Part shown: positions 1,147 to 18,820 of the stretch, piece by piece
How positions within the stretch are numbered: the stretch's first letter is position 1
Layout: each line of letters opens with the position of its first letter
DNA from: Candidatus Caldarchaeum sp.
GTDB taxonomy: Archaea; Thermoproteota; Nitrososphaeria_A; Caldarchaeales; Caldarchaeaceae
Assembly: GCA_038890155.1 (NCBI GenBank)
Contig: JAWAFZ010000010.1
Location: 1 to 24,000, forward strand
DNA: 24,000 nucleotides
Direction of reading: 5' to 3'
Made by a program: the position numbers and the translations under genes
Notes under the pieces: generated by a model
Database searches by the model: none
Told to the model about the DNA's origin: nothing
Seen by the model: the letters and a program-made list of their open reading frames with translations, nothing else

Positions 1147-2124
1147 TTAAATTGAAGGATAAAGTTCTTCCACGATCTTGTGGAGTTGCTGCTTCTCGTA
1201 GGTGACAGGGTTCAAGACAATCCAGTCAACTCCTTCGAGTGATTTAACCCGTTCCCTGATTTTCGCAGCGATCTCCTCAACCGTTCCGTAGAGGTAGAAG
1301 TTTTTCCAGTAGTCAAGGTTCATGCCCGAATAAAGTGAGAATCGTTTGACGGCTTCGGCGTCGCTGTCTCCTGCTTTCTTCAAGTAGACGAAGTTGGAAT
1401 AGATTTTAGTTATTTTGTACGGGTCCCTTCCAAGCTCAGTTGCGTATTTCTTAACTTTCTCCCAGTCGTTGGTCGCCATCTGAGGCGTAGAGCTCGAATG
1501 CGGAATCCATCCATCGGCGAACTTCGCAATACGGTAAAGAACTTTGTCGATTCCTTTCGCAGCTGCTCCGTAGAGAATTTCATGAGGCTGGCTCCCTCCG
1601 CCAATCCATATTGGAGGATGAGGTTTCTGTGAAGGTTTCGGCTCGAGAATTAGGTCTTTGACGGTGAAAAATTTGCCTTCGAACGTGATTTTGTCCTCTG
1701 TCCAGAGCTTTTTCAGCAGCTGGAGGTATTCATCCATGATCGCTCCGCGTTTTTCGAGAGGTGTGTTGAGGAGGTGGAATTCGTCGGGATTCCATCCCAC
1801 GCCTGCGCCGAGAACAAACCTCCCTCCAGAATACACGTCGAGAGAAGCAATCTGTTTGGCGACGATGTAGGGGTTTCTGAAAGGCAGCACCATTATCATG
1901 GGGCCCAGCAACGCTTTCTTCGTCGCGGCGGCTACTAACGACAGAGCGATCAACGGGTCGTGCCAGCTAGTCGAATACGCAGGCCTTGAAGTGAGCAGAT
2001 GGTCGATGACGAAAAATCCTTCAACCCCCATGCGTTCGGCTTCTGCGACGTAGTTTCTCAGAGTCTCGCCGGATGAGAATTCTCCTGGCCTTGCGTAGGT
2101 TGGAAGACGAAGACCAAGCTTCAT
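1147..2124 (-). CDS. Luciferase-like monooxygenase (LLM) class flavin/F420-dependent oxidoreductase
   Basis: 325-aa ORF with LLM TIM-barrel family patterns recognised by eye (MKLGLRLPTY..., GVEGFFVIDHL, VLPFRNP, GRFVLGAGVGW, HPPIWIGGGS). Its ATG (2122-2124) overlaps the TAA of the upstream amidohydrolase by 1 nt. F420 versus FMN specificity cannot be decided by eye; F420 biosynthesis genes sit in the same window. Confidence 0.8.
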   Translation of the reverse strand: MKLGLRLPTYARPGEFSSGETLRNYVAEAERMGVEGFFVIDHLLTSRPAYSTSWHDPLIALSLVAAATKKALLGPMIMVLPFRNPYIVAKQIASLDVYSGGRFVLGAGVGWNPDEFHLLNTPLEKRGAIMDEYLQLLKKLWTEDKITFEGKFFTVKDLILEPKPSQKPHPPIWIGGGSQPHEILYGAAAKGIDKVLYRIAKFADGWIPHSSSTPQMATNDWEKVKKYATELGRDPYKITKIYSNFVYLKKAGDSDAEAVKRFSLYSGMNLDYWKNFYLYGTVEEIAAKIRERVKSLEGVDWIVLNPVTYEKQQLHKIVEELYPSI

Positions 2125-3308
2125 TAATGACCACCTTCGGGCATTTTCGCTTCTCCGCTGGTCTTTATTTGTTTCGAAGGAGGCGGGGTCATCCGGCTTC
2201 GGCCGACTCTAACCACTCCGTCTATCATGACCATGGCTATCCCAGGAATGTCGCCGACTGAGAAAGCTTCGACGGCGTCCCGCGCAACCGAGCCGTAGGG
2301 TGCGTCCATCACCACGAGGTCCGCTGGACGTCCAGGCTCCAGCACACCTTCTCTGAGTCCGAATGTTTTCGCCGTGTTTCCCGTGGCGGCTGAGACGATT
2401 TTCTCGGGCGCTATTCCTGCAGCCGAGGAGATGAAGGAAACGGTTCGGATGATGCCTAGAGGAATGACTCCTGTCCCGGAAGGCGAATCCGTTCCGATAA
2501 TCAATCTATGCAGCTCGTTTCGCGATTCTAGAATTCTAACGGTATCTATCATGGATTTGAAGTTGCCGCACTGGACTACTTCGATGGCCGCTTTCGTGTT
2601 TTCGATGATGGATCGGATGTCTGGAATTGATGGAGATGTCGGCCCTCCGTTGATGTGTGAAACTACGTCGGGCTGAACCTTGAGCACGACTTGAGCGTTG
2701 ATTATGGTGCTTCCCGGAATCGATGCTCCGCCTGTGTGAATGACGACTTTCATTCCATGTTTCTGAGCTAATCGGACGAGTGAAGCGGCTTCATCGGGGT
2801 CCTGAACTGTTCCAAGCCCGACTTCCCCGACAAGCCAGACGCCCTTCGAAACGACTTCCTCGAAATCGCCTTCTACAAGTCCTTTCTCCAGCAGAAGAGC
2901 GCCTGCGTGAACTTTCGCGCCGAGAGGCCTGACGTTCTTGAATGTTTTGTGGGCCAGAACTGCGAGGGCTTTCGCGGCCTCCTTGTCTCCACGGGGTCTG
3001 CCAGGGAGATGAACCTCGCCAGCAGAGACAAACGAGGTGACTCCACCGTTAACGTATGATTCTATGAATCCTATAGTGTTTTGGCGAGGGGTGAAATCGC
3101 CGAAAACGGGATGGACGTGTGAATCAAACAGGCCGGGAGCCACCGTCATCTGGCCGACGTCGAACACTCCGTCTGCCTGCCGGGAAATGTCCCAGTCTAT
3201 TTCCTCTATTACGCCGTTGTTGATGTAGATGCTGTCGCCTTCTGCAAAAGGCTTATCGAACTTACCTGAAAGAATTTTTCCCGCGTTCTTGACGAGTATT
3301 GTTTTCAT
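2124..3308 (-). CDS. Metal-dependent cyclic amidohydrolase, enamidase-like
   Basis: 394-aa ORF with a full set of amidohydrolase-superfamily metal-ligand motifs: DSHVHPV (HxH), VGEVGLG, VVIHTGG, VVSHINGGP, IIGTDSPSG. End-to-end it resembles my recollection of Eubacterium barkeri enamidase (MSKTIIKNIGKIVSG..., ...PRQKT..., VSHINGGPT, similar length). An SD-like GGGGGAAATAC sits before the ATG, 12 nt after the upstream stop. Confidence 0.8.
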   Translation of the reverse strand: MKTILVKNAGKILSGKFDKPFAEGDSIYINNGVIEEIDWDISRQADGVFDVGQMTVAPGLFDSHVHPVFGDFTPRQNTIGFIESYVNGGVTSFVSAGEVHLPGRPRGDKEAAKALAVLAHKTFKNVRPLGAKVHAGALLLEKGLVEGDFEEVVSKGVWLVGEVGLGTVQDPDEAASLVRLAQKHGMKVVIHTGGASIPGSTIINAQVVLKVQPDVVSHINGGPTSPSIPDIRSIIENTKAAIEVVQCGNFKSMIDTVRILESRNELHRLIIGTDSPSGTGVIPLGIIRTVSFISSAAGIAPEKIVSAATGNTAKTFGLREGVLEPGRPADLVVMDAPYGSVARDAVEAFSVGDIPGIAMVMIDGVVRVGRSRMTPPPSKQIKTSGEAKMPEGGH

Positions 3309-3320
3309 GTATTTCCCCCG

Positions 3321-5633
3321 CTAAAACGTGTTTTTATTTGTTGCGATGCTCCAGAGAAGGCTGGGGGAAATGTTTGATTTTGTGAGACGTTTTTTGGCGG
3401 CGTCTTCAACGGCGTTGACTATTGCGGCGGCTACGGGTATCAGCGGGCCTTCACCCATTCCCTTTGTGCCTAGCTCGGAAAACATAGACGGTGTTTCTAA
3501 GTGGTCGATTAAGATCTCAGGAGTTTCCATGGTTGTGGGGAGAAGATAGTCGCTGAACGACGCCGTCAACAGAACTCCGTTCTGGTCGTAGAGGATGTTT
3601 TCATAAAGGGTTGCGCCTAGCCCCTGCAGAACACCCCCTAGGATCTGGCCGTCGACGATGGGTTTGTTCATTATTTTGCCGCAGTCGTGTACGGCTACGT
3701 ATCTAAGAACTTTGACAATGTATGTTTCCGGGTCAAATTGGACGATTGCGACGTGAGCTGAATTTCCGTAGGTGGCTGACATGTTGATTTCACCCGGAGC
3801 TCCGACGTTGAATGTCGGAAAATCATAGAAAACCTCAGCCTGAAGGCTCTCATGATATTTTTTTGTCTTGACAACGTCTCGATAGGCTTTTGAAGCGATT
3901 TGGGCGAAAGTCAGCGAAAAATCGGTTCCCTTAAGAACGATTCGGCCGTCGTTTATCTCCAAATCTTTCTCAGACGCTTCAAAAAGGCCTGCCGCTAGCG
4001 AAAGAATTTTCGCCCGGAGAATTTCGCATGATTTTTTGACGGCTGCAACGGTCATGACGCTGAACCTGCTGGCCCACGTGCCTCCGTAGGGGCTTGGATA
4101 GACCATGTCCGAATCGCCGAAGACAATCCGCACGTTCTCAGGCTTGACTCCGAGAGTTTCGCAGACGATCTGAGTCAAAACAGTTTCATGGCCCTGCCCC
4201 TGAGGAATCGAAGCCGCGTAAACCGTGACCGCTCCAGATTCTTCAAGCCTAACGATTGCCCCTTCGCCGGAGCCCGACGTTTCAAGCTCCGGAAACAACA
4301 GTTTGTTTCGGGCTAGGTTTGTTACCGCAGGCTCGACTACGCAAGCTACTCCAACGCCGACATTCGGCAGGCCTCGGTATTGCTCCGGCTCGGCGAGCTT
4401 CCAAGCCTTCTCAAGTAGTTCACGGTATTCGCCGCCGTCGTAAAGGCTTCCGAACACACTTCGGTAAGGCATCATTTCTCTGCCGACCATGTTCCTCAGC
4501 CTCATTTCAACCGGCGACAACCCCACCTCCTTCGCCGCGATGTCCATCATCCTTTCCAGAACAAAATACGCTTGCTGACACCCATATCCACGGACAGGCC
4601 CCGTGGGGCATTTATTCGTGAAAACAACTTTCAACTGGACCTCGACGTTGCGGATGTCGTAGCATCCGAGATAGGTCATCAAAGACCTGATAACTCCACC
4701 CGGGTCGGGAAGACGTGCGTAGGCTCCGACGTCTTCGATGAAGTCTGTACGGTACGCGGCTATCTTTCCAGTTTTGTCGAGGGCCATCTCCGCATAAGTA
4801 ACGCGGTTGGAGTTGTGAGCCATCGCTGTCAAATGTTCTCGGCGTGTTTCAAACCACTTCACGGGTCTCTTAAGCTGAAGAGCAGCAAAGCAGACTAGAA
4901 AAACATACGGATAGAGCATGATTTTGACGCCGAAGCCTCCGCCGATGTCCTTCTCGATGAACCGAATTTTCTCGGGCGTTATTCTGAGACAGTCGGCGAG
5001 GATTTTCTTGAAAAGAAGTGGTGTCTGCTGGTTATCGTAAACAGTCAGCGAGCCGTCTTTCTGCGGAACAGCCACTACACCGCATGTCTCGATCGGCGAC
5101 GCAGCATACCTTTCAAAGAAGAACTTTTCCCTAACCACCCTTTCAGCTTCGCTGAAGGCTTCTTCAACATCTCCAAAAGAAAATTTCCTCTCTAGTGCTA
5201 CGTTTGTTCCCAGCTGTTCATGGACCAATGAGGATGGGTGAAGCGCGTCTTCGGCGTCGACGACGACTCCTAAAGGCTCGTAATCGACGACAACCTGCTC
5301 AGCAAGGTCGAAAGCTTCTTCACGGGATTCAGCGACGACCACGGCTACGGGTTCGCCGTAGTATCGGACTTTGTCAACCGCTATGCCGTAGTACGGCACG
5401 TTCTTTATCAGCGTGTAGAGAGGCTTGGTTCTGTACGCGATGGTTTTCCCCGTGAAAACAACGCCTCCCTGTCGAACCACGCTCTCGTAGGAGATCTGCT
5501 TGATTCTAGCATGGGCATAAGGGCTTCTAACAAACACAAGATGAAGCATTCTTGGAAAGCTCAAGTCGTCCACATAAACAGCTTCTCCCCGCAGAAACCG
5601 CGGGTCCTCCAGCCTTCTAGTCAAGTTCAACAA
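3321..5633 (-). CDS. Molybdopterin-binding large subunit of a xanthine dehydrogenase/CoxL-family Mo-hydroxylase (orphan: no adjacent FAD or 2Fe-2S subunit)
   Basis: 770 aa with an N-terminal a/b-hammerhead pattern (RLEDPRFLRGEAVYVDDL), GGGFGVK, active-site loop PVRGYGCQQAYF and C-terminal KGMGEGP with the catalytic Glu. TTG start at 5633 (a stop 4 codons upstream, no ATG available). Confidence 0.9.
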   Translation of the reverse strand: MLNLTRRLEDPRFLRGEAVYVDDLSFPRMLHLVFVRSPYAHARIKQISYESVVRQGGVVFTGKTIAYRTKPLYTLIKNVPYYGIAVDKVRYYGEPVAVVVAESREEAFDLAEQVVVDYEPLGVVVDAEDALHPSSLVHEQLGTNVALERKFSFGDVEEAFSEAERVVREKFFFERYAASPIETCGVVAVPQKDGSLTVYDNQQTPLLFKKILADCLRITPEKIRFIEKDIGGGFGVKIMLYPYVFLVCFAALQLKRPVKWFETRREHLTAMAHNSNRVTYAEMALDKTGKIAAYRTDFIEDVGAYARLPDPGGVIRSLMTYLGCYDIRNVEVQLKVVFTNKCPTGPVRGYGCQQAYFVLERMMDIAAKEVGLSPVEMRLRNMVGREMMPYRSVFGSLYDGGEYRELLEKAWKLAEPEQYRGLPNVGVGVACVVEPAVTNLARNKLLFPELETSGSGEGAIVRLEESGAVTVYAASIPQGQGHETVLTQIVCETLGVKPENVRIVFGDSDMVYPSPYGGTWASRFSVMTVAAVKKSCEILRAKILSLAAGLFEASEKDLEINDGRIVLKGTDFSLTFAQIASKAYRDVVKTKKYHESLQAEVFYDFPTFNVGAPGEINMSATYGNSAHVAIVQFDPETYIVKVLRYVAVHDCGKIMNKPIVDGQILGGVLQGLGATLYENILYDQNGVLLTASFSDYLLPTTMETPEILIDHLETPSMFSELGTKGMGEGPLIPVAAAIVNAVEDAAKKRLTKSNISPSLLWSIATNKNTF

Positions 5634-6622: not shown

Positions 6623-6638
6623 TTAGTTGGTCTGTTTT

Positions 6639-7739
6639 ATGGCGTTGTACGGGGGCGCTTCCGTGGATTTTGACGCAGCTAAGAGGGTTCTTGGAGGCAG
6701 CTTCACGGTGACTAGTGTTTACCTAGACGCTGGTGTGTTGACTTTTGAAGTTGCTGAGAACGTTATAAAGGAGAGGTTCAAGAGATGTCTCCCCCAGCTC
6801 AAGAGCCTCGGGTTGATAGCCACTGCTCGTAAGGAGAACGGAGTGGTTAAGATAAGGGTGTTTCCCTACGCCAAGCCTCCCAAGAACGATATACGCATAC
6901 CGCTGGTTCTCGGCCTGGCTACTCTGGCTACCGTGTCCTTCGACGGCTTCATAAGGTCTTCTGGAAGGATATACAGCGTCGTGCATCCCGGCTACAGCCT
7001 CGGCGAAGTATTCTTCAACGGCATGGTCTTCTCAGCAGCTTTGCTTGCAATAATATTCATCCACGAGATGGGCCATAAGCTATCAGCTCGTATAGACGGC
7101 GTCTCCGCTAGCTATCCCTACTTCATACCCGGGTTTCCCGGCATCATTCCAACCTTGGGTGCTGTGATTTTTCAGAAGGAGCCGCTCGCTAACAGGGATG
7201 ACATGTTTGACATAGGGATAAGCGGGCCTGTTGCTGGGTTCGCTACGGCGGTTGTTGTGGCCTTCGTTGCTTTCCAGACCGCCACGTGGGTTCCGGTCGA
7301 CCAGTACCGTGCTTTGATCGAAACGGCTGCGAGGGAGGGGTCGGTCGTAGAGGTTCCGCTGATCTTCACCCTGATAAGGCTTCTGTACGGAAGGCCTGAC
7401 GAAGTTCCTTTCTTCATGACTGTTGGCTTCGCTGCTTGGCTGGGTATGGTCGTCACGGCCTTGAACCTCATGCCCATATGGCAGCTTGACGGCGGCCGTA
7501 TATTCAGGAGCTTCCTGTCAAGAAAGCAGCACCTAATCGCTTCGTACATCTCTCTAGGCGTGTTGGTTGTCGCGGGCTACTACTTCATGGCCTTGCTGCT
7601 AATATTCATGATGGGCAGGAGCATCGACATAGTTCCGTTGGACGACGTCTCTCCGCTTTCTTTCTGGAGAAAGGTTTCCTTGATAGGGCTTGCAGCCATG
7701 CTCGTTCTCAGCTTCGTACCCCTTACCAGGATGTTCTAA
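6639..7739 (+). CDS. Site-2 protease family (M50) intramembrane zinc metalloprotease
   Basis: HExxH motif in a hydrophobic segment (IFIHEMGHKLSA) plus the second M50 signature NLMPIWQLDGGRIF, with several predicted TM helices. The track ORF begins at TTG 6627; I prefer the in-frame ATG at 6639. Confidence 0.85.
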   Translation: MALYGGASVDFDAAKRVLGGSFTVTSVYLDAGVLTFEVAENVIKERFKRCLPQLKSLGLIATARKENGVVKIRVFPYAKPPKNDIRIPLVLGLATLATVSFDGFIRSSGRIYSVVHPGYSLGEVFFNGMVFSAALLAIIFIHEMGHKLSARIDGVSASYPYFIPGFPGIIPTLGAVIFQKEPLANRDDMFDIGISGPVAGFATAVVVAFVAFQTATWVPVDQYRALIETAAREGSVVEVPLIFTLIRLLYGRPDEVPFFMTVGFAAWLGMVVTALNLMPIWQLDGGRIFRSFLSRKQHLIASYISLGVLVVAGYYFMALLLIFMMGRSIDIVPLDDVSPLSFWRKVSLIGLAAMLVLSFVPLTRMF

Positions 7740-8725
7740 AACCCCTCGAGACAGGTTCCAACGCAGTTAGGCACAGCCAGCACCCTCGCCTCTCTAGACT
7801 TTACACGTCTCGCATACACGACCGCTTGGTCAAGAGTGTCGGCCTGCCGAGCGTTGAGAATCTTTTCAACGACCGTGGAGGGAAGCGCCGTGACCAGCAC
7901 AACTTTGTGTTTCTCGGCTACTGCCTTCCAATCCTTCCACTGCTCGACTAATTCAGAGTCTTGGACGTGCTCGCCCTTGGCGAGCTTCAGCAACCATTCC
8001 TCGCCTAATCCTTCAGAGGACTCGAACATGAAAACCACAACCTTGCCGGGCTCTAGCTTCGATACGGAGGATGCCATGTGGAGGCATGCCGAGAAACGCT
8101 TGTCGACAGGATGTCCAGGGCCTCCGACGAGCACGACGTCTGCGGGGTTGTTCGGCGAGTACTTGGACAACTCCTCAGCCCTCCGTACAGCCGTCTGGGA
8201 GACTTCCTCGAACTCGCCCACCATAACCTCGGCTACATAGCCTCCGCATCCAACTACGGGGGATACCAGCTTCAAACCGTGGCTGGGTTTTTTCCAGAGG
8301 TCTTTGGGTCCCATCACTCTTCCGCCCCAGTACACGGCAGGCGAGAATAGAAGCGTTTTGGACGGGTCTGCTTTGTCCGTCCCTGTGAATGGCTGTATCT
8401 TCTTGACTTCTGGCAACAGCTTCCTCACGTATTCATACAGGCTCTTCTCAGTTTGAGCATCAGCGTACCGCCACGATGAAACATACACCTCGACGCTAGG
8501 AAAGTTTTCGGTGCATGTCCCAACCGTCGACACCACAGCCTCGTCGTACCCGTCAACTGCGTAAACATAGTCTACGACCACAGCCTCCACCACATCTTCG
8601 AGACAACGTCTTATCTCATCGGTGTAGCCGGCATGCCTGCTTCCGGACGGGTTGAGAACTTCGACCGATTCCTCCAAGTCGGCGAATATTTCCGTGCTGC
8701 CGTACTTGAACCAGACCTCCACCAT
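7736..8725 (-). CDS. Hypothetical protein with distant LarA/DUF2088-like (lactate-racemase fold) features but without the nickel-pincer cofactor residues
   Basis: 329-aa ORF with protein-like composition. The N-terminus MVEVWFKYGSTEIFADLEESVEVLNP resembles the DUF2088 opening (..LPYG...L.L.IP....VL.P). ADVVLVGGPGHPVDKRF...EPGKVVVFMFESSEGLG and HKVVLVTALPSTVVEKI...LDQAVVYA echo LarA segments recalled from memory. GCGGYV sits where LarA has GFSGGRK, so there is no Lys. The family call is low-confidence. Confidence 0.45.
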   Translation of the reverse strand: MVEVWFKYGSTEIFADLEESVEVLNPSGSRHAGYTDEIRRCLEDVVEAVVVDYVYAVDGYDEAVVSTVGTCTENFPSVEVYVSSWRYADAQTEKSLYEYVRKLLPEVKKIQPFTGTDKADPSKTLLFSPAVYWGGRVMGPKDLWKKPSHGLKLVSPVVGCGGYVAEVMVGEFEEVSQTAVRRAEELSKYSPNNPADVVLVGGPGHPVDKRFSACLHMASSVSKLEPGKVVVFMFESSEGLGEEWLLKLAKGEHVQDSELVEQWKDWKAVAEKHKVVLVTALPSTVVEKILNARQADTLDQAVVYARRVKSREARVLAVPNCVGTCLEGF

Positions 8726-8768: not shown

Positions 8769-8780
8769 GGTTTAAAATAA
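8769..8780 (+). promoter_or_regulatory. BRE/TATA box for the nitroreductase-cofD-cofC operon
   Basis: GGTTTAAAATAA centred ~29 nt upstream of the ATG at 8803. A second TATA-like element (CTTTTTAAGAAGG on the minus strand, ~8745-8757) faces the divergent gene starting at 8725. Confidence 0.5.
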
Positions 8781-8802: not shown

Positions 8803-9429
8803 ATGGGTTCGGAGGTTTTCCTGAGCTTTCTTAAGAGTCGAAGGACTTCGAAGATGCTCGGGGCTGGACATGTGCCGGCCGAGGTGGTTGTGAAGGCTGT
8901 TGAGGCGGGTGTGTGGGCTGCGAACGCTCATGGATATCAGCCTTGGAGGTTTGTCGTCGTCGACGATGAGAGTGTTAAGGAGCGGCTGCTGGATGAAATG
9001 GGGAGGGATTGGCTGGAGGACTTGACCGGCGACGGCATGGAGCGTAGCAAGGCTGAGAAAATAGTGGAGATATCTAAAAACAGAAGCCGTCGAGCGGCTT
9101 TCCTCATAATCGCATGCCTGAGCATGAAGGACATGGATGTTTACTGGGACAGCCGTCGGAGCAGGCTAGAATACGTGATGGGCGTCCAGAGCGTCGCAGC
9201 AGCTGTACAGAACATCCTGCTGGCGGTCCACGGCCTTGGATACGGCTCTTGCTGGAGATGCTCGCCCCTGTTTGCTCAGAATGCTGTGAGGAGGGTTCTG
9301 GGAATTCCACCGGACGTCGAGCCCCAGGCGATGGTTGAGGTAGGACTCAGGGGAGGTGAGACGTCTGGACTTCGTAAGCCTCTCGGTGAAGTTGCTTTCT
9401 TGAATAAATGGGGTAATCCGTTATGCTGA
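8803..9429 (+). CDS. Nitroreductase-fold flavoprotein resembling the C-terminal domain of FbiB (dehydro-F420-0 reductase-like)
   Basis: Nitroreductase signatures are present: SRRTSKML, AANAHGYQPWRFVVV, GLGYGSCW. Stretches such as PWRFVVVDDESVKERLLDEMGRDWLEDLTGDGM and AAAVQNILLAVHGLGYGSCW...DVEPQAMVEVG parallel my recollection of the Mycobacterium FbiB C-terminal domain. The stop overlaps the cofD ATG by 7 nt. Confidence 0.75.
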   Translation: MGSEVFLSFLKSRRTSKMLGAGHVPAEVVVKAVEAGVWAANAHGYQPWRFVVVDDESVKERLLDEMGRDWLEDLTGDGMERSKAEKIVEISKNRSRRAAFLIIACLSMKDMDVYWDSRRSRLEYVMGVQSVAAAVQNILLAVHGLGYGSCWRCSPLFAQNAVRRVLGIPPDVEPQAMVEVGLRGGETSGLRKPLGEVAFLNKWGNPLC

Positions 9430-10355
9430 CCGCCTTGGCTGGAGGCGTTGGTGCTACGAAGCTGTTGGTCGGGCTGAAGCATGCTATGGGCCTTGAGCGT
9501 GGGGCTGCGGTGGTCAACACGGGGGACGACGAGGTTTTCTACGGGCTTCACGTCTCTCCCGACTTGGACACGGTTGTGTACGGCCTGGCGGGACTGGGCG
9601 ACGCTGAGCGGGGATGGGGAGTCTTGGGCGACAGCTTCACCGCCTTGGAGATGCTTGGAAAGCTGGGCTGCGAAACATGGTTCAAGCTGGGCGACAGAGA
9701 CTTGGCGGTAAGCCTGTACAGGACTATGAGGATGATGGAGGGTGCTTCCCTTACGCAGGCTACTGAGGAGATTGCCACCAAGCTGGGTGCCGGCTGGAGA
9801 GTGCTGCCCATGACAGACGACAGGGTGAAAACCATGGTCGAGACCGAGCTGGGGGTCATGCCTTTCCAGCAGTATTTCGTAAAGCATGGACACAGGCTGA
9901 GCGTGAGGAGGATAATCTTTGAGGGTGTTGAATCAGCCAGTCCGACCCAGGCAGTCCTACAGGCAATCGACACAGCCGACTACGTGGTCCTCAGCCCGAG
10001 CAACCCCCTCGTAAGCATATCTCCCATACTGTCGCTCAAGGGTGTTAGAGAGAGGCTCAGGAGAGTTGAGGCGAAGATACTGGCTGTCAGCCCCTTCGTG
10101 GGAGGCCGTGCGTTGAAGGGACCTGCCGCGAGCATGATGGTTGACCTAGGTCTTGACCCGTCTCCGGCGGGAGTGGCGAGGCTCTACGGCGACTTCCTCG
10201 ATGTTTTGGTGTTCGACATCGCTGACTCCTCGTACGTTGAAGAGGTGAGGGCTTTGGGGGTCAAGCCTGTTGCCGCTAAGACTGTGATGAATACTCTGGA
10301 AGACAAGGTTCTTCTGGCTAGGACGGTTCTCCGGGAGCTGGGAGCGGTTAGTTGA
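9423..10355 (+). CDS. cofD: 2-phospho-L-lactate transferase (LPPG:FO transferase), F420 biosynthesis
   Basis: 310 aa. The N-terminal LTALAGGVGATKLLVGL glycine-rich motif, the SPSNPLVSISPIL motif and the overall length are typical of CofD/FbiA. Overlaps both neighbours (7 nt and 4 nt). Confidence 0.9.
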   Translation: MLTALAGGVGATKLLVGLKHAMGLERGAAVVNTGDDEVFYGLHVSPDLDTVVYGLAGLGDAERGWGVLGDSFTALEMLGKLGCETWFKLGDRDLAVSLYRTMRMMEGASLTQATEEIATKLGAGWRVLPMTDDRVKTMVETELGVMPFQQYFVKHGHRLSVRRIIFEGVESASPTQAVLQAIDTADYVVLSPSNPLVSISPILSLKGVRERLRRVEAKILAVSPFVGGRALKGPAASMMVDLGLDPSPAGVARLYGDFLDVLVFDIADSSYVEEVRALGVKPVAAKTVMNTLEDKVLLARTVLRELGAVS

Positions 10356-10936
10356 AATGCTATGCCGTCTTGCCTGTCAAGAGGCTGGAGGACGCCAAGA
10401 CGAGGCTGCGTACAGCCTTGTCGGGGGCTGAGAGGCGGAGGCTGGTTTTACGGCTTTTAGTCAGGACCGGTGTTCTCTGCGAGGCTGCTGGGTTGGAGGT
10501 CCTCGTTGTGTCGAGCGACCCCGATGTTGAGAAAGCCTCGGACAGACGTGGATGGAGGCTGGTCGACGACTCGGGCCTGGGTCTTAACCCTTCGATACGG
10601 AGAGCTTTAAAATCCCTGACGCATGCTCCAGTCCTGATTGTGCTGCCCGACCTGCCGCTTTTGAGCTTAGCTAGCATCGAGGCTGTGCTAAGCATCGGCG
10701 GGGGTAAAGGCTGCGTCGTATGCCCCGACCTGAGGCTAAAGGGTTCTAACATGCTTTACCATTTTGACGGAGGAAGCCTCTTCCCGATGTTCGGGGCCGA
10801 CAGCTACCGGCGTCATCTGGCAAGCCTGAGCCGGCGTTTCCCTACAAAGACCTACGTCGAGCTCGGGACGGCGCTCGACCTAGACAAGCCCAGCGACCTA
10901 CTTCTTCTTTCTAGGCTTTCTCCGACTCCTGTTTAG
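10352..10936 (+). CDS. cofC: 2-phospho-L-lactate (or PEP) guanylyltransferase, F420 biosynthesis
   Basis: 194 aa with the CofC/FbiD patterns AVLPVKRLEDAKTRL, VLIVLPDLPLL, GSNML...FGADSYRRH and DLDKPSDL. TTG start (10352) overlaps the cofD TGA (gTTGA). Confidence 0.85.
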   Translation: MKCYAVLPVKRLEDAKTRLRTALSGAERRRLVLRLLVRTGVLCEAAGLEVLVVSSDPDVEKASDRRGWRLVDDSGLGLNPSIRRALKSLTHAPVLIVLPDLPLLSLASIEAVLSIGGGKGCVVCPDLRLKGSNMLYHFDGGSLFPMFGADSYRRHLASLSRRFPTKTYVELGTALDLDKPSDLLLLSRLSPTPV

Positions 10937-16558: not shown

Positions 16559-18820
16559 TTATCTACGTTGTTTAACAAGCCAGTAAACCCTTTCAGGCGT
16601 CATCGGGGCCTCCAGAGGCCTCACTCCGGCGGCGTCGTGGATTGCGTTGGCGATTGCTGGGGCGACTGATATTATGCCGATCTCCCCGATGCCCTTGGCT
16701 CCGAAGGGCCCCGACTCCTCGTGGTCTTCCACGGGAATCGCCTCTATGTCTGGAACATCCTTAATCGAGGGTATGAGGTAGGTTGAGAGGTTGGTTGTTA
16801 GCAGCCTTCCATCTCGTATTTTCACGTCCTCGAGGAGTGCGAAGCCAACGCCTTGTGCTGCCGCCCCCTCCATCTGGCCTGTCAAGGTTTGAGGGTTAAC
16901 AACTCTCCCTACGTCGGCGGCTGTCACTAAGTTTTTCACAGACACGGCTCCGGTCAAAGTGTTGAGCTCAACAAGCACGAGGGTTGCCCCGAACATGTAG
17001 AAGAGATGCGGGATCTCGAGAGACCCGGGAATGGGCTCCACTCGGGGAACTTCGTAGACTCCCACAACGCTCCTCCCGACTCCCGTTTTTTCAAGGATCT
17101 CAGATACGCTGCAGAGAGATATTTCATGGCCTGTTGAAGTTATCACGGCTCCGTTGCGTAGGGAGACTTCGCCGACAGGCCTTCCGTAGTGAAGCTCAAG
17201 CCCCCTCTTTATCGCCTCGACCATTAGGGATGCAGCCTTTCTCAGTGCGTTTCCGGCTAGGAACAGCTGGCGTGATGCCGACGTCACGCTTGTGTCGGGC
17301 GTCTCGGCGGTATCTGCGAAGAAGACCTCGATTTTGTCGATGCTTGTGTTCAGAGCCTCGGCGGCCAGCTGGGCTATTGCTTGGACAACTCCCTGACCTA
17401 TTTCCGTGAAGCTGCCCTTGACGTTGAACCCTCCGTCCAGCCTAAGCTCAAGCCCTATGCTGCCCTTGTCTGGAAGAGCCCCGAGCGTGTAGCCCTTCAT
17501 GGCCGCTGCAACGCCAACTCCACGCCTTATCCACGGAGCACTGGGTTCTTTCTTCAGCCTCTCCCTCTCCCTCCAGACTGGATGGTTCCTCAGGGCCTCG
17601 AGGCATTTTTTGACGCCGACGCTTCCAACCAGCTTGTTCCTGAAAACTCCGTAATCTCCTTTCTGGACGACGTTCAACAGCCTGAATTCCAGCGGGTCGT
17701 ATCCCAGCTCTTCAGCAAGCTGGTCGACCTGCTGCTCCATGGCGAAGTGGACTTGAGGAGCTCCGAAGCCTCTGAAAGCTGATGCGACCATGTTGTTTGT
17801 GTATACAAGCCAAGCCTTGATGTCTATGTTGGGTATTCTGTAAGGGCCGTTGCAGGTCTCCATGGCCACGTCAAGAACAGCAGGGCCTAGGGCTGCGTAA
17901 GCACCGGTGTCGTAAACTATCTCGACGCTGTTGGCTGTTAGCCTGCCGTCCGACGACGCCCCCGTCTTCATCCTCACGACAGAAGAATGTCTCTTCGTGC
18001 CCGCCAAGGTCGACTCCTCTCTGCTCCACACAAGCCTAGCCGGCCTCCCTGTCTTCAGAGTGACGAGTGCAAGATGTATCTGCACAGATATGTCGTCTTT
18101 CCCGCCGAAAGCTCCTCCGACGTGAGGTATCACGACCCTCACCTTCTCGGGTGGCAGGTTTAGCGTGGAAACTATTTCGTGATGGTCTCTGTAGGGGGAC
18201 TGGCCGCCGGCTACGACAGTTATCCTGCCCAGCTCATCTATGTAGGAGACCCCGGCCTCGGTCTCGAGATATGCATGGCTCTGCGGATATGTTCTGTAAG
18301 TGTTCTCTACGACAACTTTTGACTGTCTAAAGCCTTTGTCTACATCGCCGAAAGCTATTCTCGTGCTTCTGCAGATGTTGCTGTTCTCATGTATCTTGAA
18401 GCTTGAAGGCTTCATGGCCTCAGAAGGGTCTGAAACAACCGGTAAGGGCTCGTACTCCACCCTGATCTCTCCGAGGGCTTCCTCAGCCTCCTCCCTCGAC
18501 TCCGCAGCGACAAGCGCCACCGGGTCTCCTATGTACCTTACCCGGTCGTCGCACAAGACCGGCCTGTCCTTGACAAACAAGCCGTATCGGTTGTTCGGAA
18601 CATCCCGGTGGGTGAAAACTCCTGCGACGCCGGGCATTCGAGCGGCCTTGGACACGTCTATGTTGAGGATTCGTGCGTGTGGATGCTTGCTCCGAAGCGT
18701 TGCGACCCAGAGACAGTCATCGAGAACGATGTCGGAGGCGAACTTGGTTTTCCCAGATGCTTTTTCGTACGCGTCTCTTCTGGCTATTCGGCGACCGACC
18801 CACTTAGCTTCGACCGTCAT
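16559..18820 (-). CDS. Mo-hydroxylase large (molybdopterin-binding) subunit, xanthine dehydrogenase/aldehyde oxidoreductase type (L2)
   Basis: 753 aa with RRDAYEKASGKTKFASDI, GGAFGGK, active-site loop SAFRGFGAPQVHFA and C-terminal AKGIGEIG (catalytic Glu). The ATG overlaps the stop of the FAD subunit gene by 4 nt. Confidence 0.9.
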   Translation of the reverse strand: MTVEAKWVGRRIARRDAYEKASGKTKFASDIVLDDCLWVATLRSKHPHARILNIDVSKAARMPGVAGVFTHRDVPNNRYGLFVKDRPVLCDDRVRYIGDPVALVAAESREEAEEALGEIRVEYEPLPVVSDPSEAMKPSSFKIHENSNICRSTRIAFGDVDKGFRQSKVVVENTYRTYPQSHAYLETEAGVSYIDELGRITVVAGGQSPYRDHHEIVSTLNLPPEKVRVVIPHVGGAFGGKDDISVQIHLALVTLKTGRPARLVWSREESTLAGTKRHSSVVRMKTGASSDGRLTANSVEIVYDTGAYAALGPAVLDVAMETCNGPYRIPNIDIKAWLVYTNNMVASAFRGFGAPQVHFAMEQQVDQLAEELGYDPLEFRLLNVVQKGDYGVFRNKLVGSVGVKKCLEALRNHPVWRERERLKKEPSAPWIRRGVGVAAAMKGYTLGALPDKGSIGLELRLDGGFNVKGSFTEIGQGVVQAIAQLAAEALNTSIDKIEVFFADTAETPDTSVTSASRQLFLAGNALRKAASLMVEAIKRGLELHYGRPVGEVSLRNGAVITSTGHEISLCSVSEILEKTGVGRSVVGVYEVPRVEPIPGSLEIPHLFYMFGATLVLVELNTLTGAVSVKNLVTAADVGRVVNPQTLTGQMEGAAAQGVGFALLEDVKIRDGRLLTTNLSTYLIPSIKDVPDIEAIPVEDHEESGPFGAKGIGEIGIISVAPAIANAIHDAAGVRPLEAPMTPERVYWLVKQRR

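Follow-up and report, generated by a model that had tools for sequence, protein, structure and literature searches.

The window analysed here comprises 24,000 nucleotides (nt) of Candidatus Caldarchaeum sp., namely positions 1 to 24,000 of the forward strand of contig JAWAFZ010000010.1 (contig C10 of the GenBank assembly GCA_038890155.1, which spans 1.70 Mb and is 93.75% complete). Candidatus Caldarchaeum, a hot-spring archaeon, was formerly assigned to the Aigarchaeota and is now placed in the order Caldarchaeales. The forward strand of the window carries a probable three-gene operon, in which a stand-alone nitroreductase-fold gene, designated NTR, is followed by two genes for the biosynthesis of coenzyme F420, cofD and cofC. 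The parts of the locus, with flavin mononucleotide abbreviated as FMN, phosphoenolpyruvate as PEP and the deazaflavin that forms the core of the cofactor as FO, are the following:

8771..8778, forward strand: TATA-like box TTTAAAAT, read from the sequence, the putative promoter of the three-gene operon.
8803..9429, forward strand: NTR, a stand-alone nitroreductase-fold gene of the FbiB-C/FbiE type (208 aa, ATG start), predicted to encode an FMN-dependent dehydro-F420-0 reductase.
9423..10355, forward strand: cofD, homologue of fbiA (310 aa, ATG start), encoding the transferase that joins an activated C3-acid phosphate to FO.
10352..10936, forward strand: cofC, homologue of fbiD (194 aa, TTG start), encoding the guanylyltransferase that activates PEP or 2-phospho-L-lactate (2-PL).

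The three open reading frames (ORFs) overlap exactly as the initial annotation had described them, as the ATG of cofD overlaps the stop codon of NTR by 7 nt (9423-9429) and the TTG start of cofC overlaps the stop codon of cofD by 4 nt (10352-10355). The TATA box that had been proposed ahead of them is likewise present, an A/T-rich TATA-like element lying 25-32 nt before the ATG of NTR, and an alignment of same-genus relatives has an equivalent A/T-rich box at the same distance. This spacing points to an operon transcript that is leaderless or has a short leader. Judged from this geometry, the three genes would be served by a single promoter, co-transcribed and translationally coupled.

FbiB's C-terminal domain carries out the FMNH2-dependent reduction of dehydro-F420-0 (Bashiri et al., 2019, PMC6450877), and it is this domain that NTR resembles most. 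The best NCBIfam matches of NTR are FbiB (NF009810, 121 bits) and the FbiB C-terminal domain (TIGR03553, an equivalog_domain model named for the C-terminal domain of fused FbiB, 120.1 bits), while the runner-up family, BluB, follows about 80 bits behind TIGR03553 at 41 bits. Among proteins of known structure the top sequence match is the FbiB C-domain of Mycobacterium tuberculosis (Mtb; 4xom, E = 2e-23), and the next, 3gfa (4e-13), is ten orders of magnitude weaker. An AF2 model of NTR, built from 25 homologues, reached a pLDDT of 94, and in Foldseek its top ten matches were all FbiB C-domain chains (4xoq, 4xoo and 4xom, the second of which is an FMN complex) with TM scores of 0.83-0.89. The motifs that the initial annotation had listed for this family (PWRFV, RLLD.M..W..DLT.DG, AAVQ.LL, CW and EP) all occur in NTR, where they line up with those of the Mtb FbiB C-domain.

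At the level of single residues, R13, R14, T15 and K17 of NTR fit RR(S/T)x(R/K), the family's motif for the FMN phosphate, and a set of family-marking residues (H43, W48, R49, D73, G78, Y114, D116, R119, M126, Q129, S130 and W151) is absent from the outgroup nitroreductases in the alignment. A two-helix insert at residues 56-96 is likewise missing from most of these outgroup proteins. An exhaustive homologue search of 1.84 billion representatives returned 3578 relatives of NTR. In a FastTree phylogeny of 157 domains, with 10 nitroreductase paralogues from related genomes as outgroup, NTR falls inside a clade with 96% SH-like (Shimodaira-Hasegawa-like) support that takes in all stand-alone relatives as well as every form fused to CofE, CofC or CofD, with the 10 outgroup proteins outside. 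Membership of NTR in the FbiB-C family is thus supported, and the expectation that it would group with FbiB C-domains to the exclusion of other nitroreductases is borne out by both trees that were computed (FastTree above, IQ-TREE below). Neither tree resolved the backbone well enough to place the archaeal stand-alone proteins as sister to, or nested in, the FbiB C-domains, and no direction of evolution is claimed for the stand-alone and fused forms.

In Pfam the only family seen is the generic Nitroreductase (PF00881, 97 bits), NCBI labels the homologues 'nitroreductase family protein', and the curated cutoff for the FbiB C-terminal domain is missed (see below), all of which would suit a chance neighbour of cofD with a general nitroreductase or flavin reductase function. 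The genomic distribution of NTR speaks otherwise. When 40 order-level relatives were compared, with a threshold of E <= 1e-56 for NTR orthologues, NTR was found in 32 and cofD in the same 32, and neither gene was found in the remaining eight. NTR lies directly upstream of cofD and on the same strand in all 32 (in one of them the pair is split by a contig end), so that the gene order, whose conservation had been named as a check on the original proposal, is kept in every cofD-bearing relative and, as described in the following, far beyond them. The position of cofC varies between families: it directly follows cofD in family f1, to which the window itself belongs, and lies about 5 kb downstream in family f4. 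TIGR03552, applied at E <= 1e-8, detected no canonical cofC in ten genomes of family f2 (Calditenuis). The notion that f2 is devoid of CofC was nevertheless rejected, as a gene for a MobA-like NTP transferase (PF12804, 75.7 bits) lies directly upstream of NTR-cofD there (L027:5243-7529, Candidatus Calditenuis fumarioli). Its product is probably a divergent CofC, in which case the gene order in f2 would read cofC-like, NTR, cofD.

A scan of named genomes yielded at least 444 confirmed matches to NTR, and gene context was taken from the best 80. Almost all of these 80 loci belong to archaeal metagenome-assembled genomes, with one Anaerolineae bacterium in addition, and they cover Caldarchaeales, Nitrososphaerota, many Bathyarchaeia, Nezhaarchaeota and a Kor lineage along with Hel-, Odin-, Hermod- and Promethearchaeota. 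In 63 of the best 80, the distance between NTR and cofD is at most 300 nt, with cofD either downstream on the same strand (51 loci) or divergently oriented (12 loci), and in ten of the 12 divergent loci cofE is found just downstream of NTR. The full colinear order NTR-cofD-cofC is present in 23 of the best 80.

The same picture emerged from 201 genomes drawn evenly across the phylum, 88 of them cofD-positive and 113 cofD-negative. Co-occurrence is strict, as all 49 NTR-positive genomes also carry cofD and no NTR orthologue was found in any of the 113 genomes that lack it. The two genes are adjacent by coordinates in 41 of these 49, and 13 or more families of the phylum keep the adjacency, as do Asgard archaea. 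Families f5 and f6, probably ammonia oxidisers, contributed 31 genomes to the sample, and the NTR-cofD module was found in none of them. One NTR orthologue, which adjoins cofD and is divergent from it (G168:C1:19162-19770, reverse strand), contains a single in-frame TAA stop codon, which may mark a pseudogene or a sequencing error.

Domain fusions point in the same direction as gene order. Among the close homologues of NTR there are an NTR-CofD fusion (P0127, 535 aa), two CofC-NTR fusions (P0124 and P0201, 393 and 411 aa) and 15 CofE-NTR proteins with the FbiB architecture, in addition to two proteins in which a PNPOx/FDOR-like domain is joined to NTR (P0165 and P0173, 343 and 370 aa). No mention of fusions of an FbiB-C-type domain to partners other than CofE was found in the literature examined. 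Taken against the generic family label, the adjacency across phylum families and Asgard archaea, the strict co-occurrence with cofD, the fusions to CofC, CofD and CofE and the overlapping stop and start codons that bind the genes together leave a chance neighbourhood of a general nitroreductase scarcely credible.

The identities of the two partner proteins are shown by their sequence matches. The cofD product scores 302.4 bits on TIGR01819, above the equivalog cutoff of 257.45 and over residues 3-303 of 310, and 154 bits on PF01933, while the cofC product reaches 123.1 bits on TIGR03552, against a cutoff of 105. In an alignment to 6bwg, CofC keeps the residues with which Mtb FbiD binds Mg and its substrate, the list of which was taken from PMC8764529, at K10, L78, D100, S132, G148, S151, D176 and D178, with S132 corresponding to a Thr in Mtb FbiD. 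A Ser at the position equivalent to G148 marks CofC proteins of the 3-phosphoglycerate (3-PG) type (PMC8764529), and because G148 is not Ser, the CofC of the window is, by this marker, not of the 3-PG-accepting type. CofC assays cannot discriminate PEP from 2-PL, and it is CofD that filters the intermediates (PMC8764529), hence the argument for the use of PEP in vivo comes from the occurrence of the reductase and not from CofC.

On these grounds it is proposed, with a probability of roughly 0.78, that the NTR-cofD-cofC operon puts the lactyl phosphate arm on FO by the PEP route, with NTR as the dehydro-F420-0 reductase; the step from enzyme to route is that a stand-alone dehydro-F420-0 reductase implies PEP as the starting compound. 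In the proposed sequence of reactions, CofC would guanylylate PEP to give enolpyruvyl-diphospho-guanosine, and CofD would move the enolpyruvyl phosphate onto FO to form dehydro-F420-0. NTR, as an FbiE-type enzyme working with FMNH2, would then reduce the methylene double bond to yield F420-0 with its (S)-lactyl arm, to which CofE, a separate protein whose gene lies on another contig, would add the glutamates. The FO acceptor would most likely be taken up from the surrounding community, such that the operon would be a finishing module and not a full de novo pathway. From family, structure model and gene order we infer the enzymatic activity of NTR, the use of PEP as substrate in vivo and the co-transcription of the three genes.

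Several observations weigh against this proposal. The 120.1 bits of NTR on TIGR03553 fall well short of the curated cutoff of 249.55, and by NCBI's rule NTR is therefore not an equivalog of the actinobacterial FbiB C-terminal domain; the assignment made by the initial annotation stands inasmuch as this is the best-matching family by a wide interval, but not at the equivalog level. In an IQ-TREE analysis (LG+C20, 62 rows) the split between family and outgroup was kept at just 81% SH-aLRT. The residues of CofC do not separate PEP from 2-PL, and the archaeal CofC/CofD pairs assayed to date favoured 2-PL (PMC8764529). The nitroreductase of Thermomicrobium roseum that is used for comparison below (WP_012643075.1) is not confirmed as the protein assayed by Braga et al. 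(2020). Lastly, the column of Mtb R337 is occupied by I90 in NTR.

This last point concerns the substrate pocket, which in Mtb FbiB is formed by P289 and M372 (the methylene pocket) together with R337, which is proposed to bind the carboxylate of the substrate (PMC6450877). In the 147 family (non-outgroup) rows of the alignment, the column of M372, which is M126 in NTR, holds Met in 112 and Leu in 29, and that of P289, which is A42 in NTR, holds Ala in 113 and Pro in 28, so that Ala is the majority residue of the family. Four residues after I90 stands R94, which is nearly invariant in the archaeal clade and conserved in 101 of the 147 rows, and which may stand in for Mtb R337 in binding the carboxylate.

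NTR lacks an arginine at the R337 column, and prior to 2019 nothing more was known of the FbiB C-domain than that tail extension requires it (PMC6450877). These two points leave room for another role of NTR in the assembly of the F420 tail: it might aid CofE in starting or extending the glutamate chain, the function originally assigned to the FbiB C-domain, or act on a different CofD product with a 2-PL-derived side chain. Such a role is thought unlikely. The gene is linked to cofD and cofC and not to cofE, which is absent from the window, as had been noted at the outset, and lies on another contig (C1:73911-74654, 275 bits) amid unrelated genes, namely those for a restriction-endonuclease-like protein (Mrr_cat), a HIT protein, a wyosine radical-SAM enzyme, a PfkB protein and a surface protein. 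The NTR-CofD and CofC-NTR fusions and the conservation of the methylene-pocket Met (M126) likewise speak against such a role, and the stand-alone enzymes of T. roseum are reported as dehydro-F420 (DF420) reductases, at least as a review relates it (PMC8498797).

The idea of a stand-alone reductase is not new, since such enzymes have been demonstrated in Thermomicrobium and their occurrence in archaea has been predicted (PMC8498797). Bashiri et al. (2019) had sought nitroreductase genes only beside archaeal cofE, with no convincing candidate, and postulated an unknown 'CofX' for archaea (PMC6450877). Stand-alone dehydro-F420 reductases of the nitroreductase superfamily were then demonstrated in Thermomicrobia (Braga et al., 2020, AEM 86:e00457-20, as cited in PMC8498797), and in their review Grinter and Greening (2021) named the stand-alone enzyme FbiE and noted archaeal homologues (Figure 10B; PMC8498797). 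These archaeal FbiE homologues share with NTR the family, the linkage to cofD and cofC and the argument for a PEP route, and the review gives no biochemical test of them.

The closest bacterial counterpart examined lies on the megaplasmid of T. roseum (NC_011961.1, 786360-789573; L115), where the order is cofD-cofC-DMT-NTR and the nitroreductase WP_012643075.1 is 38% identical to NTR (E = 9e-43). Both proteins are free-standing, of about 200-225 aa, with a nitroreductase fold and homology to the FbiB C-domain; in both cases the reductase is encoded with cofD and cofC while CofE is a separate protein, and the two fall into the same family of the tree. They differ in that they belong to different subclades and in that the T. 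roseum reductase gene comes last, after a transporter gene, whereas NTR comes first and overlaps cofD. Furthermore, the host of the window is an archaeon, with no gene for FO synthase detected in its genome, and reductase activity has been demonstrated for bacterial enzymes only. The gene that separates cofC from the nitroreductase gene in T. roseum encodes a DMT-family transporter, which could transport a deazaflavin or an F420 precursor.

With the Mtb FbiB C-domain (4XOM, 4XOO and 4XOQ), the best match of NTR in sequence and fold at about 30-33% identity, NTR has in common the RR(S/T)x(R/K) motif, H290 (H43 in NTR), M372 and a helical insert with the pattern W..DL..DG that is absent from other nitroreductases. 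In contrast to FbiB, NTR is not fused to CofE, P289 is replaced by Ala and R337 by Ile, with the clade-specific Arg following four residues later.

The genome looks like that of a heavy F420 user, to judge from its gene content: besides cofE it encodes Fno (178 bits, cutoff 149.8), an FrhB-like protein and 18 luciferase-like (LLM, PF00296) proteins, one of which lies in the window. The genes for FO synthase, cofG and cofH, were not found in this 93.75% complete genome. Five near-complete relatives, including a single-contig genome at 99% completeness, gave the same negative result, and so did five other archaea with NTR-cofD, including a complete Bathyarchaeota chromosome (the genomes concerned are G000, that of the window, and the relatives G007, G008, G011, G017, G022 and G040-G044). 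A tblastn search of the assembly with cofH and its neighbouring ORFs (probably cofG) from two phylum relatives gave a best match of E = 0.001 over 54 residues. In addition, the pyrimidine reductase of the riboflavin pathway and lumazine synthase were not found in the genome of the window, although both controls were positive in 14/14 reference genomes, and the pyrimidine precursor of FO is therefore probably not made either. Because the assembly is incomplete, this genome by itself cannot prove that the genes are lacking, and it is the agreement of the complete relatives that carries the argument for FO salvage. Since neither FO synthase nor the riboflavin pathway is detectable, FO is most likely imported, and the genome would probably finish F420 from scavenged FO. 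No FO- or riboflavin-type transporter was found beside cofE, the neighbourhood of which was the part of the genome that the transporter search covered.

Across the phylum sample, cofH was not detected above cutoff in 51 of the 88 genomes that carry cofD, a group that takes in 43 of the 49 genomes with NTR. The eight cofD-positive genomes that have neither an NTR orthologue nor cofH are G048, G057, G059, G066, G073, G138, G183 and G209; if these use PEP, they need another reductase. A negative association between NTR and cofH (six genomes with and 43 without cofH when NTR is present, 31 and eight when it is not) was considered and set aside, as it is driven by family f5 (28 genomes) and is gone at the family level, and no causal link between NTR and the loss of cofH is claimed.

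The lack of detectable cofG, cofH and riboflavin-pathway genes in the genome and the scarcity of cofH in NTR-positive genomes could also be read such that NTR acts on the deazaflavin head group, processing or reducing a scavenged FO-like compound before it reaches CofD. The nitroreductase fold does include BluB, a flavin-transforming enzyme and the second-best family of NTR. A salvage function of this kind is nonetheless very improbable. Six NTR-positive genomes do encode cofH (G121, G147, G175, G180, G195 and G200), and actinobacteria that have FbiC also have the homologous domain in FbiB, hence the occurrence of the NTR family does not hinge on FO auxotrophy. Moreover, the family-level counts give no clear association of NTR with cofH loss, and NTR is far more similar to the side-chain reductase than to BluB.

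With NTR taken as the dehydro-F420-0 reductase of a PEP route, the statement in the initial annotation that the archaeon makes F420 by this route can be divided in two. The route through dehydro-F420-0 and a stand-alone reductase is supported by family, fold, tree and linkage, and every computational check that could be run on it came out in favour of the initial annotation, but instead of 'makes F420' it would be better to say that the archaeon imports a deazaflavin core and completes F420 from it. The wider form of this idea is that Caldarchaeales and most other Thermoproteota with NTR-cofD are obligate FO auxotrophs with an F420-rich metabolism but neither FO synthase nor the riboflavin pathway, which would import the FO of their neighbours and finish F420 via the PEP route and the stand-alone reductase, and we regard it as standing at about even odds. 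In the literature, Beam et al. (2015) listed a Calditenuis as a riboflavin auxotroph yet an F420 prototroph, and the review that named FbiE is silent on the lack of FO synthase in genomes of this kind (PMC8498797).

Two further genes of the window bear on F420 or on the surroundings of the operon:

1147..2124, reverse strand: predicted F420-dependent luciferase-like (LLM class) oxidoreductase (TIGR03619, 205.8 bits, cutoff 166.9), 6.7 kb upstream of the operon.
7736..8725, reverse strand: gene for a 329-aa protein with a LarA C-terminal-like domain (PF21113, 33.6 bits; NF033504, 38.9 bits), divergent from the NTR operon.

The LLM oxidoreductase is likely a consumer of F420. Its gene is abutted by an amidohydrolase gene (2124-3308), which is followed by a gene for a molybdenum hydroxylase large subunit (3321-5633, reverse strand), and a second large-subunit gene lies at 16559-18820. 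The stretch 1147-5633 on the reverse strand may thus be a cluster for the breakdown of N-heterocycles or purines that uses F420.

The LarA-like gene was considered as a supplier of L-lactate for the 2-PL route. Its score on NF033504 is far below the cutoff of 460, and only residues 244-414 of LarA align to its product, weakly (26-39 bits), at a length of 329 aa compared with about 425 for LarA, so that a match to the N-terminal catalytic and cofactor-binding half of LarA is lacking. The gene stands beside NTR in all 15 related f1 loci (L003-L016, with L002 being the window's own genome; 27-97% identity), where it is kept together with an M50 protease gene (6627-7739 in the window), and was not found beside NTR in the f2 loci L017-L021. 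It evolves fast, with 27-53% identity in other f1 members as compared with 59-76% for NTR. Given the weak C-domain match and its absence next to NTR in f2, the gene was used neither for nor against a 2-PL route.

Since 2019 the origin of the archaeal lactyl arm has been debated, the choice being between 2-PL and PEP with an unknown reductase. Within this debate the locus is a sound but ordinary example, a clean and well-kept archaeal instance in Candidatus Caldarchaeum of a module that, according to the present survey, is common in Thermoproteota and has examples in Asgard archaea, and its main value lies in confirmation and in offering thermophilic archaeal enzymes for assay. The reading most worth following up is FO auxotrophy, a more useful by-product of the analysis than the operon itself. 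If it is true, hot-spring and sediment communities would trade FO as a public good, the published tables in which Aigarchaeota appear as F420 prototrophs would need correcting, and the change from 'F420 producer' to 'FO scavenger' would alter how the cofactor dependencies of these communities are read.

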